A stretch of 64,000 bases of DNA from Escherichia phage DaisyDussoix: the sequence record MZ501058; one strand, written 5' to 3'. The position numbers were made by a program, and so were the translations under genes. The notes under the pieces were generated by a model, which saw only the letters and a list, made by a program, of their open reading frames with translations, was not told the origin of the DNA and did not search any database. Each line of letters starts with the position of its first letter. The stretch's first letter is position 1. Below, in pieces: positions 38,972 through 45,710 of the stretch.

Positions 38972-40491
38972 ATATCGCTGGCCTGTTCACCTGTTGAATT
39001 TTCAGCTTTGTCTTTCTTAGCACGTTTAGATTGAGCCAGCTTATCCTTCTCAATAGGGATAACGAACTCAGCTTCCATTTGAGATATATCTTCCATTGCG
39101 AGATTGGTAGTGTTATCCATCCGCAGGGTTTCCCAGTTCATTTTAGGCATAAACTTCACGCTATCAGAAGAACGAGTCTTAACGAAGTCAAACATAATAG
39201 CACCTTGACCATTATCCGCTTTTGCAGCATTAAGATTAGCAGCCATGTCTGCGGAATCAAGAATCCCCTTTGACATACGTGTTCTACCATCTTGATCAAT
39301 CTGGTAAGGAGCTACACCAGCCACGTTATGTTTCTGGCAGATAGATTTGAAAGACGAGCTAACAACCATCTGTTCTTTCCAGTCATACATATCAATGGTT
39401 TTAGAGTCTGGAAGTCGGGTTTGGTTAATATAGTCTAGTAAAGCTACTGTAACTTTATCCCCATATCTAGCAACTAATTTATTTAATTCTACGTCAACTG
39501 TTGTAATAGACAGCTCAGGATCATAAACAATAATCATAGGAGTATGTAGCTCATACCCTTCTATTAGCTTACTTTCCATATCGTAGAAATCACTCATCTT
39601 AGCCATTGTGTACTGTTTAACGAAGTTATCGAAAAGCTCTTCACCACCGTTAAACATCCTAGCTCTAGTTCTGGCTAATCTCAACAGAGCTGCACCTTCT
39701 AGAGTATTATTACGCATTGCTAGTGCTGATACACCAGCTAACATAGCTAGATTACGTCTAAATACTTCATGTTCTTTCATCTCAATTGAGAAGTATGGAG
39801 CAATATCTCCATTCAAATATTGCTGAACCTGTATGTTTGAACAGATAATGGATTTACCAGTACCACGCCAACCACCAAGCAGTAACGTTTCTGTGCGAGC
39901 TAAACCAATTTGAGCGTCGAACTCATTACAAATACCAAGAGCGATTAAGTTCAGTTTGGTATCTTCTTCTCTCTGGAAAATACGCATGTTATCTGCGTTG
40001 AATACTTTTCCAGTATTCGTTACTTTCTCTTCTAATTTTAAGTGAAGGGAGGCAACTCGGTTAAGAATTTCTCCCTGATCCAGCATTGTTAAGTCTTGAA
40101 GCACGTCTGTTTCTAGGAGCTTCAGGAATAAATCCTGTGTATATTCAGCCTCTAGGACTTCAAGTGCCTGTTCCATGCTCACTTCTGGAATTTGAGTGTT
40201 AGCTAAGACGACTAGAGCTTGAGAAAGGCGGGCGTTCCTATTAGCTTCAAGCATAAGTGCGTCAATGGACGGCATTGTGTTATATTTTTTATAATAATTC
40301 TGGACGGCTTGGTAAATTGAGGAGAAAGCGTCATTAAAATGATCTTTATGCAGTTTTGAGAATGTTTCCAATGCTATTTGCTTCTGTTCGGAAGCTAGAA
40401 GCATCTTCAACACTACAGCTTGCACGTTAAACAAGGTCATTCTCCTTTGCACGCTTTCGTGCCTTCTAAATGCAAAAAGGGGAAGGAGCAT
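38968..40491 (-). CDS. DnaB-like replicative helicase
   Basis: 507 aa; Walker A-like GGWRGTGKS, C-terminal RecA-like region; SD GGAGG upstream of first ATG. Confidence 0.6.
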   Translation of the reverse strand: MLLPLFAFRRHESVQRRMTLFNVQAVVLKMLLASEQKQIALETFSKLHKDHFNDAFSSIYQAVQNYYKKYNTMPSIDALMLEANRNARLSQALVVLANTQIPEVSMEQALEVLEAEYTQDLFLKLLETDVLQDLTMLDQGEILNRVASLHLKLEEKVTNTGKVFNADNMRIFQREEDTKLNLIALGICNEFDAQIGLARTETLLLGGWRGTGKSIICSNIQVQQYLNGDIAPYFSIEMKEHEVFRRNLAMLAGVSALAMRNNTLEGAALLRLARTRARMFNGGEELFDNFVKQYTMAKMSDFYDMESKLIEGYELHTPMIIVYDPELSITTVDVELNKLVARYGDKVTVALLDYINQTRLPDSKTIDMYDWKEQMVVSSSFKSICQKHNVAGVAPYQIDQDGRTRMSKGILDSADMAANLNAAKADNGQGAIMFDFVKTRSSDSVKFMPKMNWETLRMDNTTNLAMEDISQMEAEFVIPIEKDKLAQSKRAKKDKAENSTGEQASDI

Positions 40492-40522
40492 AGCCCCCTC
40501 CCCTTAGGTTTAATTTACCAGA

Positions 40523-41290
40523 TTATTCAGCAGCCGCAGCTTTTGCATCCAGTTTAGCACGCTTAGCGGCACCATCATAGTCCTTAGCAACCAGACCACG
40601 ACGAGACAGCATAGATTTAACACCGCGCTCAGACTTACCAGTTTTCTCAGCGATCTCAGCAACAGTCATGTTAACCAGATCCAGCCCTTCTAACAGATCT
40701 TCACGAGTTTTAGCACTTGAAGTTTCCTGTACCGGCATAGCGGCGATACGACCTTCACGAAGCAGGCTCAGAGCTTTACCACGGATCTGCTTGATATTAC
40801 GACCGAAGTGAGCAGCGATAGCTTCAATAGTAGCCCCAGCAACAACCTGATTAACAAAATCAGTTTCTTCATCAGGAGTGAAGGAACGAACAGCGGCAGT
40901 TTTTTCAGTTGGTTTAACAGAAGCGGTCATTTCCAGACTCAGGATCTTACCCTGTACCTGTTTAGCACCGAACTGACCACCAGCCACAGCAGCAGCGATT
41001 TCAGCATAGGTATACTGACCAGCATGAGCGTTCAGGAAATCAACCAGTTCAGCTTCCTGCTCAGGAGTCCACGGGGATTTCTGTACTTCGTTAGCTTTCT
41101 GTACTTCAAAACCTTCTTTACGCAGTTTAGAGCCAACAGAGCGAGCAGTAACATCTTTGCCAGTTTCAGCAGCCAGTTCAGTAGCAATAGCAGCTACTTG
41201 TTCTTGAGAGATTACAGCAACACCCAGAGCAGTGGCTTTTGCTTTCAGAGACTCGGTTACACCTTCTACGTTCCAGTTCAGTTTAGACAT
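40523..41290 (-). CDS. hypothetical protein with repeated HTH-like modules (putative DNA-binding)
   Basis: 255 aa; three internal repeats of a ~25-aa basic motif (VGSKLRKEG / GKALSLLREG / GVKSMLSRRG). Confidence 0.35.
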   Translation of the reverse strand: MSKLNWNVEGVTESLKAKATALGVAVISQEQVAAIATELAAETGKDVTARSVGSKLRKEGFEVQKANEVQKSPWTPEQEAELVDFLNAHAGQYTYAEIAAAVAGGQFGAKQVQGKILSLEMTASVKPTEKTAAVRSFTPDEETDFVNQVVAGATIEAIAAHFGRNIKQIRGKALSLLREGRIAAMPVQETSSAKTREDLLEGLDLVNMTVAEIAEKTGKSERGVKSMLSRRGLVAKDYDGAAKRAKLDAKAAAAE

Positions 41291-42053
41291 TATTATTTTT
41301 CTCCAATAGTTCTTTAATCGACAGGATTTCTATCCCATTCGTTTCGGCTTTCTTATAAGATGAGGAAGAACGTTTTGATTCATCCTCACAGATCAGGTAT
41401 TTGACGTCTTTGGTAACGGATTTCTTAACCGTATATCCTAGACCTTCTAAATAGTTTGTTGCATCCGTTCTATTTGCAAAATCTTGCAAAGATCCGGTAA
41501 TACATACCGCGATTTTATTTGGCTGGGCAACTAAATCATCAGTAACGACGGTTTTAGCTTTCGCACCTTTTGAAAATTTCCACGGTAATTCGATAACATC
41601 CTTGCCTTGTGGGGAATTTAGCCAGGCTTTATAATTTTCTCCAGCCTTGCCGTCAGCCTTCACATCATGGAAGCTAGTGCAATTTTGGGATAATTTCTTT
41701 GCTGCAACCTCTCCGATTAGAGGGATTCCTAAAGAACCGAGAACTGAACCAAAGTCAATGTCTCCGCGAACTTTAGTATTTAATTCGCTAATTAACTTAG
41801 CGGCAACCTTGCTACCCACGGCTCTAACCAAATCTTCTTCGGTTAGGTAAAATAGTTCTGAAATCTTCGTCAGCTCCAGCTTCTCAATAGTTTTTGGGCC
41901 AAAGCCCTTTAACTTCATTTTTGTACAGAAGTTCTCAATTAACTTACTTGATTGCGCTGGACAGTTGGACTTATTCCGACAGAATAATTGTCCGTTGACA
42001 AGATCTAGCTTAGAACCACAAGAGGGACATTGTGTTGGAATTTCGATTTTCAT
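41283..42053 (-). CDS. ligB: NAD-dependent DNA ligase, C-terminal part (Zn finger, HhH, BRCT)
   Basis: Start set to ATG 42053 with AAGGAAG SD; CPSCGSKL...CRNKSNCPAQ zinc finger, HhH GFGPKTIEKL, BRCT-like C-terminus. Confidence 0.85.
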   Translation of the reverse strand: MKIEIPTQCPSCGSKLDLVNGQLFCRNKSNCPAQSSKLIENFCTKMKLKGFGPKTIEKLELTKISELFYLTEEDLVRAVGSKVAAKLISELNTKVRGDIDFGSVLGSLGIPLIGEVAAKKLSQNCTSFHDVKADGKAGENYKAWLNSPQGKDVIELPWKFSKGAKAKTVVTDDLVAQPNKIAVCITGSLQDFANRTDATNYLEGLGYTVKKSVTKDVKYLICEDESKRSSSSYKKAETNGIEILSIKELLEKNNNV

Positions 42054-42083
42054 CAAATTTCTTCCTTATCAATTTATATAAAT

Positions 42084-42112
42084 ATTATAGCAAGTATTTA
42101 AGCATTTAGCAA
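42084..42112 (-). promoter_or_regulatory. sigma70-like promoter inside the ligA-ligB spacer
   Basis: TTGCTA -35, 17-nt spacer, TATAAT -10; second weaker candidate TTGACA/TATACT at ~42177-42205. Confidence 0.6.
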
Positions 42113-42257
42113 CTACAATTTTAACTAACTTTGCTTACCCTCGCCATAACTTTCTATCCCTCAACTGAATGATAATAGTATATACCTAAGCGGCGAAAAT
42201 GTCAATAACCACTTTATAATTCCGATATGGTAGATGGGTAGCAAAGGGTTACATATA

Positions 42258-43229
42258 TTAATCGTATACTCGCTCTACTATGCACGGGATTACACCACCA
42301 GCACGAATTACTCGAATCTGGCAACCGATCTCTAGATCAAGAGAGTTAATATAATCAACGTTATTAAGAGTCGCCTTAACAATTGTAGCATCATCAATAA
42401 TTACCGGTTCGAAATAACCAACTGGAGTTACTTTACCAGAAGCCCCTACCTGCCATTCAACTTTAGTAAGAGTTGTAATTTCGCCTTCTTCATCCTCTTT
42501 AATAGCGAATGCTCCACGAGGAAATTTATTAGTCCAGCCTTCACGGAAGAATTTGTTGTTGTCATTAATACGAACAACTTTACCGTCCGTCGGAATCCAT
42601 TTAAAGAAGGAACACACATTAACAACTGTTAAGAAGTTCTCATTCTCTAGCCAAAGCATATCTTTTAAATACGTTTCTGTAATACCTACAGATTCAGCAG
42701 AACACTGGACACCATATGCAACGAAGATTAAACCACCTTCCCCGATACGTTGTACGAAATCATCGCTATCTTTGAGGTTAATAGCACCAGAGGCAAAGTT
42801 ACGTTTATTTTCTACTTCTTTTGTAATTAGAACTTCGCCAGTGATTTGAGTAGGTACTTTTTGGGAAATCTTTTTAGGAATGTTCAGCAATCTTACGTTG
42901 CTTGTGACATCATTCCCTAGAATACCATTACCACGAGTTAGTGCTTGAACAAATTCGCCATTAATATATAACAGAGAAATCGCACAACCATCTAACTTAT
43001 CAGTTTCTACCTGACCTAATGGGTTAAACGGAGGTTTATCTCCACGATTATAATAAACTTTCTGTAAAGAATACATACGATACAGATGTGGAATATCACC
43101 CTTAGGCCCGATCTCTTCTTCTAATGGAAATCTTTTAATCAGACGATCATATTCTTCGTCAGAGATTAAAGACATTCCCTGGTAATATGCCTCTTGACAA
43201 CGTTTAATAAAGTCTTTTACATTATTCAT
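42258..43229 (-). CDS. ligA: NAD-dependent DNA ligase, N-terminal part (adenylation + OB domains)
   Basis: 323 aa; KLDG adenylation motif (ETDKLDGCA), TRGNGILGNDVT; ATG start overlaps upstream ORF. Confidence 0.85.
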   Translation of the reverse strand: MNNVKDFIKRCQEAYYQGMSLISDEEYDRLIKRFPLEEEIGPKGDIPHLYRMYSLQKVYYNRGDKPPFNPLGQVETDKLDGCAISLLYINGEFVQALTRGNGILGNDVTSNVRLLNIPKKISQKVPTQITGEVLITKEVENKRNFASGAINLKDSDDFVQRIGEGGLIFVAYGVQCSAESVGITETYLKDMLWLENENFLTVVNVCSFFKWIPTDGKVVRINDNNKFFREGWTNKFPRGAFAIKEDEEGEITTLTKVEWQVGASGKVTPVGYFEPVIIDDATIVKATLNNVDYINSLDLEIGCQIRVIRAGGVIPCIVERVYD

Positions 43230-43416
43230 CGTCTGCGATTTCCATTTTGAGTTCTTTATTATACTGAGCAGCCATACCAGCTAAATCAGCAGCTTCTTTC
43301 AACCACGCATCTTTGTACGCTTTCTGGTTTGGAGTGCCGATACTATCCTGGTAATTGATTCTTGCTATGGAGAGCAAATTAAGTTTTGCTTGAATTTTTG
43401 GAAGTGTTACTTTCAT
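43222..43416 (-). CDS. hypothetical protein
   Basis: Start set to ATG 43416 with AGGAGG SD 7 nt upstream; 64 aa. Confidence 0.4.
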   Translation of the reverse strand: MKVTLPKIQAKLNLLSIARINYQDSIGTPNQKAYKDAWLKEAADLAGMAAQYNKELKMEIADDE

Positions 43417-43445
43417 AATTGATCCTCCTATCAATTTATATAAAT

Positions 43446-43474
43446 ATTATATAACAAAACTGAGTTGAAAGCAA
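43446..43474 (-). promoter_or_regulatory. sigma70-like early promoter
   Basis: TTGCTT -35, 17-nt spacer, TATAAT -10. Confidence 0.55.
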
Positions 43475-43501
43475 ATACATTTATAAAGAAAAAGCCAAGA
43501 A

Positions 43502-43810
43502 CTAGGCATTCTTGGCTTTGAGTTCTTCAGCTCGTTTCTGTACTTCATGTAAAACCTCAGATTCGCTAAGAATCTGTGTAAACGCATAGAAAAGCTGTGA
43601 TGTTGTTTCTAGGGTGTAAGGAAAAGAGAAGCCAGATTTCGTTGGAAACCATTCATCATTAATATCAAGAAGCCAGTAACGAATACCCATGTATAGATTC
43701 CCACGAAATTCAGATACTGTTAATCTTACTTGTTCTCCCTCCTTCTCCCAAAGTATGATGGACTGGTCATCAACGTGTCCTTCATAGTTTTGATTTACCT
43801 GTTCGCTCAT
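43502..43810 (-). CDS. putative PC4/YdbC-like ssDNA-binding protein
   Basis: 102 aa; core QVRLTVSEFRGNLYMGIRYWL...PTKSGFSF resembles PC4-like fold signature; motif-level only. Confidence 0.45.
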   Translation of the reverse strand: MSEQVNQNYEGHVDDQSIILWEKEGEQVRLTVSEFRGNLYMGIRYWLLDINDEWFPTKSGFSFPYTLETTSQLFYAFTQILSESEVLHEVQKRAEELKAKNA

Positions 43811-44193: not shown

Positions 44194-44604
44194 TTACTTA
44201 GTGATAGCTCGGATTGCTTCTGCTAGATGAGCAGCCGCTTTACCGGTCAGTTTGTCGATAATTGCATCATCCAGAAAATCTGGTGCTAGGCCAGCATCAG
44301 AGAATGCTGAACGAAGATCGGCATGAGCTTGGGCTTTGGAAGTACGAGAACCACCAGAAGCTTTTTCTCCAGTAGATGCGCTAGATTTAGAAGCAGAGCC
44401 AGCAGCTTTCTTGATATACACACCTGCTTTAGTTAGCTTCATACGAAAACCGTTCGGAGTTACACCATTTTCCTGAGCAATCTCGCTAACAATTTCCATG
44501 CTAACACCCGGACGTTCATCCTCTGGGAATTGCTCCATACGAGCAACGTATTCGGAAGACATTTTTTCGAACAGTTCATCAGTCCACTGAGTTGGAGTAG
44601 TCAT
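44194..44604 (-). CDS. hypothetical protein with HTH-like motif
   Basis: 136 aa; motif VTPNGFRMKLTKAGVYIKKA resembles the repeat in ORF 40523-41290; promoter at ~44650-44685. Confidence 0.4.
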   Translation of the reverse strand: MTTPTQWTDELFEKMSSEYVARMEQFPEDERPGVSMEIVSEIAQENGVTPNGFRMKLTKAGVYIKKAAGSASKSSASTGEKASGGSRTSKAQAHADLRSAFSDAGLAPDFLDDAIIDKLTGKAAAHLAEAIRAITK

Positions 44605-44710
44605 ATTTTATATTTCCTTAATTAAGAATTAAACAGAATAGTTCTTTCAAACTATGAGAATATTATATCAAGAATTATAGGATTAAGCAACTGAAATTTT
44701 TCGGTAATTG

Positions 44711-44971
44711 CTACACATCTAGCTCAACAATCTCCCAATCATCCGCTAGAGCTTCATCTAGAGTTAATTCAACCTCTTCATCACTAGGCAGCAGTGTAGT
44801 GTCTGGAGGCATCCACACGTATTGGCGTACAGTATTGCTGTCTACGTCAAACTTCAATAGTACAGTATACTCTTTATTATTTTCCCAGCTATCCCGTTGG
44901 AGATATTTTACATCTCCATCTTTAAGTAAATCAGTTAGCTTACTCACGGCGTTTTCCTTTTTCTTTATCAA
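44711..44971 (-). CDS. hypothetical protein
   Basis: 86-aa acidic ORF overlapping upstream gene end. Confidence 0.35.
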   Translation of the reverse strand: MIKKKENAVSKLTDLLKDGDVKYLQRDSWENNKEYTVLLKFDVDSNTVRQYVWMPPDTTLLPSDEEVELTLDEALADDWEIVELDV

Positions 44972-45644
44972 GTTTTAGAGCAGCCTTAACAGCTTCGTTA
45001 ATCAACGTAATAATTTCTTCACGAGTCCATTTATATCCCAGAGATTTTACATCAACCCCTAGCTTTTCCAGATGTTTAACAGAAGCCAGCTCGTAATTCA
45101 TATAGTGGACGTTCTGTTGTTTGCCTTCTGATAGAAGCCATACACGGTAACAACCAACAGGATTATCCATTGCTTTTTTGATTTCACCAATACACTGGTA
45201 TCCAGGAACCCAAACAAGCTCACCAACTGCAAATTCTTCTGCTACAGCATCATCAGGAATAATCGGAGGATTCAATGGGTCTACAATATCATTCAAACGA
45301 AGTAGAGCACCATATCGTTCCAGAACAGATTTAACCATTGCTACAGAACGGTAATTACGATCGGCAATTTCTTCAAAAGAATCACCAGATAAATACTGCT
45401 CAATAACGTTAGCTAACTCAATGCCTTCAATGAGTGTGCCACGTTTCTTTTTCTTCATCTCGGCAACTTGAATTTGGCGATCTTGCCACTCTTCTATCAT
45501 CCTTTCCATAGTTGGGTTGGATGATACGCCAAGCATTTCACATGCTGCTTTCTTAGTACCACCGTTCTCCAGATGCTCTATAACCTTTTTAAAGACTTCA
45601 TCAGGGATTTCATGGATATGTTTCTTTCTACGAGAACCGGCCAT
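44940..45644 (-). CDS. hypothetical early protein (putative DNA-binding), first gene downstream of N25-like promoter
   Basis: 234 aa; ATG start with GAGGAG SD; N-terminal HTH-like region. Confidence 0.5.
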   Translation of the reverse strand: MAGSRRKKHIHEIPDEVFKKVIEHLENGGTKKAACEMLGVSSNPTMERMIEEWQDRQIQVAEMKKKKRGTLIEGIELANVIEQYLSGDSFEEIADRNYRSVAMVKSVLERYGALLRLNDIVDPLNPPIIPDDAVAEEFAVGELVWVPGYQCIGEIKKAMDNPVGCYRVWLLSEGKQQNVHYMNYELASVKHLEKLGVDVKSLGYKWTREEIITLINEAVKAALKLDKEKGKRRE

Positions 45645-45675
45645 ATTTAAACTCCTCTCTCAAATTTATGAATCT

Positions 45676-45704
45676 ATTATACAGAAAACTTTTCCTGAAA
45701 GCAA
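45676..45704 (-). promoter_or_regulatory. strong sigma70 early promoter resembling T5 PN25
   Basis: TTGCTT -35, 17-nt spacer, TATAAT -10, A/T-rich upstream, downstream AGATTCATAAATTTGAGAGAGGAG; matches PN25 as recalled. Confidence 0.7.
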
Positions 45705-45710
45705 ATAAAT

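Follow-up and report, generated by a model that had tools for sequence, protein, structure and literature searches.

The DNA ligase of bacteriophage T5 is encoded by two genes. The split has stood in the annotation from the 2005 genome paper onward and was taken up in print in 2006; in 2026, the structure of a heterodimer on nicked DNA followed. In the T5 genome (AY543070), ligA (T5.116) is followed by the promoters P-K28b and P-K28a, ligB (T5.117), and the D5 gene (T5.118). The solved ligase is that of Providencia phage PR1 (PDB 9HU3 and 9I5I, released 2026-01-14); both homologous chains are present under the entry title “heterodimeric DNA ligase in complex with nicked DNA,” and the depositors named the A chain “DNA ligase (NAD(+)).” Chain B of 9HU3 is 100% identical to the ligB product of PR1/PSTCR5. 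A literature search found no publication behind 9HU3, which is known by its entry titles, and none on the K28 promoters.

We analyzed the ligase locus of Escherichia phage DaisyDussoix (MZ501058) within a stretch of 64,000 nucleotides (“the window”). The phage is T5-like and belongs to the Demerecviridae. With a probability of about 0.9, we think that this is the family's two-subunit NAD+-dependent DNA ligase, with its halves in separate transcription units and, most likely, an origin by fission of a compact LigA. All of the features of the Demerecviridae split ligase that can be read from sequence are present (Table 1): the two genes are adjacent, the cut lies between the OB fold and the zinc finger, there are tandem promoters between the halves, and D5 comes next. 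Instead of the single polypeptide of the LigA family, there are two ORFs with 204 nt and several stops between them, which is the hallmark of the T5 type. The split ligase of T5-like phages was already known; its occurrence here is real, and it is ordinary in the lineage. It adds nothing new in itself; its value is as a clean natural case of protein fission at a domain linker.

Table 1. The ligase locus and its surroundings, in coordinates of the window.
Feature	Coordinates	Strand	Evidence
Terminator-like hairpin (predicted) upstream of the early promoter	43519..43491		Prediction
T5-type early promoter (predicted), TTGCTT-17-TATAAT, heading the small ORF and ligA	43446..43474	-	Member of a repeated promoter family
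64-aa ORF (70 aa from TTG 43434); stop overlaps ligA start	43222..43416	-	phrog_8267
ligA, subunit A, 323 aa: short Ia, nucleotidyltransferase with KLDG, OB fold	42258..43229	-	Pfam, PDB, and T5 matches
Non-coding spacer between the ligase genes, 204 nt; several ligA-frame stops ahead of the ligB start	42054..42257	-	
Promoter b (T5 P-K28b), TTGACA-17-TATACT, 11/12 consensus	42177..42205	-	T5 annotation and conservation
Promoter a (T5 P-K28a), TTGCTA-17-TATAAT with TG extension	42084..42112	-	T5 annotation and conservation
ligB Shine-Dalgarno, AAGGAAG, 7 nt ahead of ATG	42061..42067	-	Sequence reading
ligB, subunit B, 256 aa: Cys4 zinc finger, HhH (fourth motif shortened), BRCT	41283..42053	-	Pfam, PDB, model
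D5 DNA-binding protein gene	40523..41290	-	phrog_323 “transcriptional regulator, D5-like” (E = 6e-71); D5 in T5
Terminator-like hairpin (candidate), 13 pairs, 8 G-C, then T run	40477..40505	-	Consensus match only

The two halves of the ligase

A preliminary description of this DNA had given the coordinates of both ligase ORFs correctly, and its assignment of the KLDG adenylation domain and OB fold to the first of them was upheld. Besides the KLDG motif itself, ligA has matches to PF01653 (DNA_ligase_aden, E = 5.8e-24) and PF03120 (DNA_ligase_OB, E = 3.9e-22), and it aligns to chain A of 9hu3 (E = 2e-104). By alignment against the solved structures, residues 214–320 correspond to residues 284–390 of E. 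coli LigA. Across the ligA alignment, the invariant positions (in E. coli numbering) include Y22 and D36 of the Ia domain as well as K115, D117, G118, R136, E173, D285, G286, and K314; R200 is also conserved. Thus the nucleotidyltransferase (NTase) has KxDG and motifs III, IV, and V, with the lysine of motif IV (E. coli K290) replaced by arginine in all Demerecviridae A subunits in the alignment. The NMN-binding part of the Ia domain (E. coli Y22, D32, Y35, and D36) is also recognizable, as YYQGMSLISDEEYDRL in ligA aligns to YHVMDAPEIPDAEYDRL in E. coli; beyond YYQGMSLISDEEYDRL, the domain is shortened.

The zinc finger, HhH motifs, and BRCT domain that had been attributed to the second ORF were all identified in ligB, so that it carries the C-terminal domains expected of the LigA family. 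The four cysteines (CxxC...C...C) align to E. coli C408, C411, C426, and C432; three are invariant in the alignment, and the fourth was read directly from the sequences. The BRCT domain is found by Pfam (E = 1.8e-07). The HHH_2 match is under the Pfam cut-off, and three HhH motifs align while the fourth is truncated. The protein aligns to chain B of 9hu3 (E = 6e-81), with residues 3–122 corresponding to E. coli LigA 402–529 (alignment against solved structures), and its AlphaFold model (pLDDT 85) matches 9hu3_B (E = 1e-24) and E. coli LigA (2owo, E = 4e-07). We counted its length from the ATG; there is an in-frame TTG 3 nt upstream, at 42056. The Shine-Dalgarno sequence proposed for this gene is indeed there, and a purine-rich block is kept at its position in the spacer alignment of the relatives.

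As the preliminary description had argued, the split falls at the boundary between the OB fold and the zinc finger: by alignment to LigA and the solved structures, subunit A runs to about E. coli residue 394, and subunit B picks up at about residue 400. The break site is thus the OB-Zn linker of bacterial LigA, and about six linker residues are missing from the phage halves.

Both halves are under purifying selection (dN/dS of 0.04–0.07 for ligA and 0.10–0.15 for ligB, versus T5 and phage bastian). The ligA/ligB arrangement is present in over 400 independently sequenced genomes of close phages, and the split is also found in phages of Klebsiella, Proteus, Providencia, Serratia, Yersinia, Vibrio, and Aeromonas. 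The best 120 homologues of ligB are all stand-alone proteins of about 190–263 aa, and none is fused. Low dN/dS, the recurrence in so many genomes, and the joint presence of the homologous chains in 9HU3/9I5I bear out the earlier view that this is a two-subunit ligase and not a pseudogene. The expectation that subunits A and B are typical of the lineage was also sound, as the T5 reference record annotates both genes under those names.

By analogy with LigA, subunit A (Ia, NTase, and OB) would do the chemistry, with AMP passing from NAD+ to Lys78 of the KLDG motif. Clamping the DNA and binding the nick would fall to subunit B (zinc finger, HhH, and BRCT). The PR1 orthologue, whose chains are about 54–63% identical to those of this phage, suggests that A and B join non-covalently here too, as a heterodimer on nicked DNA that would rebuild the architecture of LigA. 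Subunit A should need subunit B because an NAD+ ligase truncated to the Ia, NTase, and OB domains can self-adenylate but cannot join DNA (PMC1684257).

The spacer and the transcription units

The preliminary description had put at least one sigma70 promoter in the spacer. The site that it located is promoter a, which stands; the count needed refining, as there are two promoters in tandem. The sequence is base-for-base that of T5 from a point ahead of promoter b as far as the ligB start codon, and promoters b and a lie at -152 and -59 relative to the ATG. In 14 cultured Demerecviridae genomes from different genera, the -35 element of promoter b is at -147 to -155 from the ligB ATG. That of promoter a is at -56 to -60 in 14 cultured genomes and in the metagenomic contig L019. 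(Chance should give about 0.05 matches in 260 nt, by a rough estimate made by hand from the base composition.) A match to the promoter consensus is not evidence in itself, because a generic scan of this AT-rich region gave 37 sites as compared to 34.1 ± 6.1 in shuffled sequences, which is no enrichment. The evidence is instead the identity with annotated T5 sites and the recurrence at fixed positions in 14 genomes, from which we infer that P-K28b and P-K28a are active as promoters in this phage.

Other features of the spacer were considered. The 119-nt K28b leader folds better here than its shuffles do (z = -3.8), but the leaders of relatives are unexceptional and RNAalifold gave no consensus structure among seven genomes, so a conserved leader RNA was rejected. 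An 8-codon mini-ORF downstream of promoter b (ATGGCGAGGGTAAGCAAAGTTAGTTAA) was dropped because phages of Klebsiella and Vibrio do not conserve it. Around the -35 element of promoter a, there is an inverted repeat in about 12 of 15 genomes, with differing arm sequences. The arms are at non-homologous positions in different genomes, and their z-scores are mixed. Among ten other members of this promoter family in the window, about 3 have a comparable repeat (hand count from printed structures).

Because the spacer carries P-K28b and P-K28a, the ligase halves are in different transcription units. The first unit would comprise the predicted early promoter, the small ORF, and ligA. This promoter and promoter a have a downstream box in common (ATATTTATATAAATTGA), and in the T5 record a promoter without a name is marked immediately ahead of ligA. 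The small ORF matches phrog_8267 from residue 7 onward (E = 1.5e-42).

The second unit would comprise P-K28b, P-K28a, ligB, D5, and the candidate terminator at 40477..40505, which overlaps the first ATG (40491) of a helicase ORF. The start of D5 overlaps the stop of ligB (ATGTCTAA), which places D5 in the ligB unit, and D5 is directly 3' of ligB in every relative that we examined. Since no terminator-like site was predicted within the spacer, read-through transcripts from ligA should reach ligB and D5. With this read-through and two extra promoters, the expression of ligB-D5 should at least equal that of ligA.

Alternative explanations and the origin of the split

Could the locus be a single ligase gene that was broken by mutation or by an assembly or sequencing error? 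The two ORFs do share a frame in this genome, counted to the TTG at 42056 (201 nt), but the length of the spacer modulo 3 varies among relatives (it is 202 nt in T5), so the shared frame is a matter of chance. Several in-frame stops separate the ORFs, ligB has its own Shine-Dalgarno sequence and ATG, the identical arrangement occurs in the 400-odd independent genomes, dN/dS is 0.04–0.15 over both halves, and both chains of the PR1 enzyme were produced and solved as a complex; we regard a pseudogene or artifact as practically inconceivable. A continuous ORF, which the preliminary description had named as a refuting result, is found in no cultured relative. Fusion of the halves by read-through or frameshifting is ruled out by the intervening stops and by the differing frame relation in T5 and other relatives. 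One polypeptide might also be made if the spacer were removed as a self-splicing intron, which the preliminary description had raised too, or skipped by ribosomal bypassing as in T4 gene 60. Introns and homing endonucleases do occur in T5-like and T4-like phages, and there is a GAT codon before the ligA stop and a GAT that overlaps the ligB start. However, these form the only matching take-off/landing pair, and landing at 42054..42052 would be out of the ligB frame, so we rejected bypassing. No group I or group II catalytic core is apparent: Rfam, searched permissively (E up to 10), had no match in 42054–42257 (two chance-level hits were both outside the spacer), relatives have no consensus structure there or in the leader, and the two promoters take up most of the 204 nt, so that a group I core cannot fit. 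Furthermore, the interval in cultured relatives ranges from 182 to 1359 nt and contains translated, protein-coding ORFs, and A and B are separate chains in 9HU3. Removal or skipping of the spacer is therefore exceedingly improbable.

Two other explanations accept the split but differ as to what it means. Subunit A could work by itself as a minimal ligase, with B as an independent factor that binds nicks or DNA and goes with D5; the two would then be non-obligate partners. In every genome, ligB is transcriptionally tied to D5 and not to ligA, it has the two extra promoters and is thus probably made in excess, and NTase-OB-only ligases have a precedent among the ATP-dependent enzymes. Against this, the PR1 entry is titled as a heterodimeric ligase on nicked DNA, NAD+ ligases lacking the Zn-HhH-BRCT portion do not ligate, and the adjacency and order of A and B are kept in all cultured relatives examined, as well as in L016, L017, and L019, the longer of the metagenomic contigs. 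We consider independent partners to be very unlikely, but a free B subunit might have an extra role. Alternatively, the split could be the scar of a free-standing homing endonuclease that invaded the linker, with the promoters arriving with it or afterwards and with no selection for ligB-D5 expression. In relatives, homing endonucleases and small ORFs have landed at the site right after ligA. Two Klebsiella phages have unrelated endonuclease genes exactly after the ligA stop (T5orf172/treble-clef, phrog_681 with E = 3e-45, in vB_Kpn24-P3; GIY-YIG in AmPh_EK80), Vibrio, Proteus, and Salmonella phages have other cargo ORFs there, and genes split by endonuclease genes are known from T4-like phages. 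Yet the endonuclease genes are sporadic and lineage-specific, whereas the promoters are in all 14 cultured genomes compared, at a fixed position. All inserts fall within the ligA unit, ahead of promoter b, and the shortest spacers, both metagenomic (65 nt in L016 and about 50 nt in L018), have one promoter each and no trace of an ORF. Overall, a mobile-element scar seems unlikely.

Fission of a compact phage LigA is the most likely origin, judging from unsplit orthologues and their syntenic position. Four contigs of uncultured T5-like phages (L014, L015, L021, and L022) encode unsplit ligases of 555–576 aa between the gene for a T5.115-like regulator and a D5-like gene. These ligases (P0148, P0217, P0220, and P0238) have the same compact domain set in a single ORF, with a continuous OB-Zn linker of 8–14 aa and no relic Met. 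The D5-like gene begins 2–17 nt after the ligase or overlaps it, and DnaB helicase and primase genes follow. The unsplit forms are known from metagenomic contigs only, and their closest cultured relatives are the split ligases of the Demerecviridae. An ancestral LigA of about 560 aa would have been divided by gaining an intergenic segment that bears promoters, and this segment would boost the expression of ligB-D5.

A neighbor-joining tree of the B regions (200 bootstraps) is a star apart from one clade, and its deep nodes leave the number and direction of events undecided. The split ligase of L016, with its one-promoter spacer, groups with the unsplit L021 and L022 (99% bootstrap). L016 also shares gene order with these two contigs, and its DnaB is 51% identical to theirs, versus 30–37% to others. 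It is possible, although on balance doubtful, that the ligase was cut or re-joined repeatedly in the wider T5-like group, always at the OB-Zn linker and always with an early-promoter cassette as the insert. If so, the split would be no frozen accident but an adaptation that gives the DNA-binding half and D5 separate and stronger control, and excess free B might act alone, for instance where T5-type genomes are nicked at specific sites. The relatives provide a series of states (an unsplit gene; a split with a single promoter; a split with a promoter pair; a split with cargo or endonuclease genes) against which one could examine why essential phage enzymes become subunits and whether expression needs, such as those of D5, drive the breaks.

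Comparison with T5, PR1, E. coli LigA, and split genes of T4-like phages

The T5 locus is the closest, with identical promoter sequences, amino-acid identities of 98% (ligA) and 96% (ligB), and the same gene order (D3 ... ligA, spacer, ligB, D5, D6). There are some differences: T5 has a spacer of 202 nt and a ligB of 259 aa, as compared to 204 nt and 256 aa here. The 64-aa ORF between the upstream promoter and ligA is missing from T5, which has just 87 nt between T5.115 and ligA. The PR1 genome has the tandem promoters and the ligB-D5 linkage as well. However, a terminator is marked in the PR1 record immediately behind ligA, where our prediction gives none for this phage, and phages may therefore vary in how much transcription runs through into ligB.

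Relative to E. coli LigA (2OWO), the domain order (Ia-NTase-OB-Zn-HhH-BRCT) and the catalytic motifs are the same, and the fold of the B half matches. The E. coli enzyme is one chain of 671 aa, whereas the phage enzyme is two chains that total 579 aa. In the phage chains, the Ia domain is shortened, the NTase domain has two deletions, the fourth HhH motif is 12 residues shorter, and K290 is changed to R.

T4-like phages also have genes in pieces, such as the topoisomerase genes 39 and 60 of T4 and nrdA of Aeh1, which is split by mobE. In these cases, likewise, an essential enzyme of DNA metabolism comes from two adjacent genes whose products reassemble and whose junction attracts homing endonuclease genes, although this is only an analogy. 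Unlike in the T4-like cases, the universal insert in the split ligase is a pair of promoters, and not an endonuclease gene or a bypass element.

Two genes for one ligase

The preliminary description had assigned the adenylation and OB domains of an NAD-dependent DNA ligase, with a KLDG motif, to one ORF and the zinc-finger, HhH, and BRCT portion to another. Both ORFs are present with matching Pfam hits and the KLDG motif (see table), and we call them ligA and ligB, for subunits A and B. The earlier coordinate for ligB is right: because all relatives compared use an equivalent ATG, ligB starts there, and the TTG at 42056 need not be invoked. In the AlphaFold model of ligB (pLDDT 85), zinc-finger hairpins, a helical HhH domain, and a BRCT fold are predicted, with a disordered linker at 164-176; the model matches 9hu3_B (E 1e-24) and E. 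coli LigA (2owo, E 4e-07).

Alignment to solved structures pairs ligA residues 214-320 with E. coli LigA 284-390 and ligB residues 3-122 with 402-529. In multiple alignments, subunit A ends at about 394 and subunit B starts at about 400 (E. coli LigA numbering), so the split does fall at the OB/zinc-finger boundary, as had been claimed pending an alignment to LigA; only the short linker between those domains is missing. The catalytic and NMN-site residues (Y22, D36, K115, D117, G118, R136, E173, R200, D285, G286, and K314) and the zinc-finger cysteines are kept.

Features of the ligase region, and contents of the interval between ligA and promoter b in relatives
Feature	Coordinates	Strand	Remarks
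P-N25 homologue	45657-45709	minus	upstream of D2 homologue (45644..44940)
P-N26 homologue	44654-44702	minus	upstream of D3 homologue (44604..44194)
Small ORF (phrog_8267)	43222-43434	minus	64/70 aa; between T5-type promoter and ligA; stop overlaps ligA start
ligA	43229..42258	minus	323 aa; Pfam DNA_ligase_aden (E 5.8e-24), DNA_ligase_OB (E 3.9e-22); KLDG
Spacer	42257..42054	minus	204 nt between ligA and ligB
Promoter b (T5 P-K28b)	42205..42177	minus	sigma70-like; TTGACA-17-TATACT
Promoter a (T5 P-K28a)	42112..42084	minus	sigma70-like; TTGCTA-17-TATAAT, TG-extended
Shine-Dalgarno AAGGAAG	in spacer	minus	7 nt upstream of ligB ATG
ligB	42053..41283	minus	256 aa from ATG; N-terminus MKIEIPTQCPSCGS; BRCT (E 1.8e-07), HhH models
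Terminator-like hairpin	40477-40505	minus	strong; 13 pairs, 8 G-C, T run; downstream of D5
T5, Klebsiella Boggle, Aeromonas Akh-2			no insert; 182-204 nt
Salmonella phage bastian			64-aa ORF
Proteus PM135			55-aa ORF
Vibrio 234P1			98-aa ORF
Vibrio VF16 and River4			three ORFs, including DprA-like gene (phrog_768)
Klebsiella vB_Kpn24-P3	L011 1771-2469		T5orf172/treble-clef homing endonuclease
Klebsiella AmPh_EK80	L012 1838-2497		GIY-YIG homing endonuclease

Two genes in place of one could reflect a decayed ligase or an assembly or frameshift artefact. These readings are ruled out by low dN/dS relative to T5 and phage bastian (0.04-0.07 for ligA and 0.10-0.15 for ligB), by several stops between the genes, which share a frame in the window only when counted to the TTG, by a spacer length that takes all values modulo 3 among relatives (202 nt in T5), and by the best 120 ligB homologues in a collection of 5.8 billion proteins, which are all stand-alone (about 190-263 aa), with no fused form among them. 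The preliminary description had also raised removal of the spacer from the mRNA as a self-splicing intron; a permissive Rfam search of the spacer gave no match, which speaks against this. The split is thus confirmed, and its interpretation as a two-subunit ligase rather than a pseudogene is supported.

The split ligase is already known and is typical of the lineage, as the annotation of T5 had suggested. A 2.15-kb region matched 441 phage records, 429 of which cover 80% or more of it. The phages are T5-like, from Salmonella, Escherichia, and relatives, and in most of the records the ligase is annotated as two genes or as "subunit A / subunit B." The T5 reference (AY543070) lists, in order, ligA (T5.116), "promoter P-K 28b," "promoter P-K 28a," ligB (T5.117), the DNA-binding protein gene D5 (T5.118), and the D6 helicase.

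Tandem promoters and transcription units

The spacer had been described as about 200 bp with a sigma70 promoter at 42084-42112 and a Shine-Dalgarno for ligB; all of this was found, along with a second sigma70-like site. The stretch that begins upstream of promoter b and ends at the ligB ATG is the same in the window and T5, base for base. A consensus scan of the AT-rich region gave 37 sites versus 34.1 in shuffles, and because this is no excess, a consensus match is not evidence for a promoter. Instead, annotation in T5 and conservation argue that these sites are promoters.

For conservation, we compared the 200-260 nt upstream of ligB in 14 cultured Demerecviridae genomes, from phages of Escherichia/Salmonella, Yersinia, Klebsiella, Serratia, Providencia, Proteus, Vibrio (several genera), and Aeromonas, with ligase protein identity down to about 50%. 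Each genome has promoter b (TTGACr-17-TATAmT) once, with the -35 at -147 to -155 from ligB, and promoter a (TG-extended TTGynn-17/18-TATAmT) once, with the -35 at -56 to -60. In the alignment of this region, the hexamers are invariant and the DNA between them is variable.

An inverted repeat or RNA hairpin surrounds the promoter a -35, at 42090-42144 on the minus strand of the window and at the corresponding place in comparison loci L002-L007, L019, and L023-L029. Its arms differ by genus (TAAGCA/TGCTTA in the window, a perfect 10 bp in Proteus PM135 and Vibrio River4, and 11 bp in Serratia Slocum), with no alignable consensus across the genomes compared. By a hand count of printed structures, about 12 of 15 genomes have it at promoter a, compared with about 3 of the 10 other promoters counted from the same family in the window. 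It might be an operator, an RNA stabiliser, or chance.

Every insert that separates ligA from ligB falls after the ligA stop and before promoter b. The two Klebsiella endonuclease genes are unrelated and share one site, where they overlap the ligA stop codon; nothing is inserted there in a third Klebsiella phage (L002). The DprA-like gene is upstream of ligA in Proteus PM135 and between ligA and ligB in Vibrio VF16 and River4 (L003 1869-2501; L004 3885-4448; L006 4612-5172).

Promoter a belongs to a family with about 10 copies on the minus strand of the window (32.5-53.7 kb), including the homologues of the classic T5 promoters P-N25 and P-N26 and a copy preceding the small ORF and ligA. T5 lacks this ORF and has only 87 nt upstream of ligA; in many relatives, homology ends at the ligA start. 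Downstream, D5 directly follows ligB in every genome compared, and in the window its ATG overlaps the ligB stop. The promoters of ligB-D5, this overlap, and the hairpin after D5 place the two halves of the ligase in different early transcription units. No terminator-like site was predicted in the window spacer; the record of Providencia phage PR1 differs in having a terminator annotated directly after ligA, before the spacer promoters (L023 1613-1636), and none like it was predicted in the window or T5. With two promoters of its own and possible read-through, ligB-D5 may be expressed more than ligA, its transcripts being in excess. The first ATG (40491) of a DnaB-like helicase ORF falls in the loop of the post-D5 hairpin, which leaves two readings: a helicase start further downstream, or control of helicase translation by the hairpin.

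Unsplit and short-spacer relatives

We searched 1.84 billion representative proteins exhaustively with ligB. The best 150 hits include 101 stand-alone proteins (225-280 aa, identity down to 31%), ten compact fused proteins of 555-578 aa, ten bacterial-size ligases, and a 511-aa protein without the KxDG motif. Unsplit ligases of 555-576 aa were placed on four contigs of uncultured T5-like phages (L014, L015, L021, and L022), which carry T5.113/114/115 homologues, the ligase, a D5-like gene, and then DnaB helicase, primase, and PolA, as in T5. In all four, the OB-zinc-finger linker is unbroken, there is no methionine at the junction, and the D5-like gene overlaps the ligase stop or starts 2-17 nt away. 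Among cultured phages, these unsplit ligases are closest to the split Demerecviridae ligases, which always match them as two pieces.

Other uncultured phages have split genes with short spacers that hold a single promoter: 153 nt in L019, 65 nt in L016 and L017, where the promoter is TG-extended, and about 50 nt in L018. In a tree of the B region, split L016 groups with fused L021 and L022 (99% bootstrap; the remaining tree lacks resolution). L016 also has the gene order of these two, and its DnaB is closer to theirs (51% identity) than to the others (30-37%). At least one additional fission or fusion event is therefore likely among T5-like ligases, with no direction assigned.

The analysis shows which domains the two genes encode, where the break falls, that the genes and their promoters are conserved, that both genes are under purifying selection, and how the neighbouring genes are linked. 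Beyond this, we propose that a promoter-bearing segment was inserted into a compact unsplit ligase, that both spacer promoters are used in vivo, and that subunits A and B would assemble into an enzyme that uses NAD+. The constant position of the tandem promoters, the hotspot for insertions, the unsplit orthologues in syntenic position, and the very short spacers with one promoter are modest extensions of what was known and may be worth a short follow-up.

Comparison with known ligases

Relative to E. coli LigA, the phage enzyme is compact: the Ia domain is shortened, the NTase domain has two deletions, and the fourth HhH motif is 12 residues shorter. All Demerecviridae A subunits examined have arginine in place of the motif IV lysine (K290 in E. 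coli; TDGKVVRIN in the window), whereas the lysine is kept in E. coli and a jumbo-phage ligase, and an Acinetobacter phage ligase has aspartate. The fused 613-aa ligase of Acinetobacter phage Ab1-TPeters (L008 2962-4803) aligns without the zinc-finger cysteines.

An NAD+ ligase cut down to Ia, NTase, and OB (a LigN truncation) self-adenylates but does not ligate (PMC1684257). A closely related known system is in PDB entries 9HU3 and 9I5I, for which our literature search found no publication. Their chains are a 339-aa "DNA ligase (NAD(+))" and a 248-aa "DNA ligase subunit B," related to ligA (E 2e-104) and ligB (E 6e-81), and chain B of 9HU3 has the sequence of the phage PR1 B subunit (100% identity). 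The title of 9HU3 (released 2026-01-14) is [quoted passage not shown]; thus, for this homologue rather than for the window phage itself, the two subunits form a heterodimer on nicked DNA.
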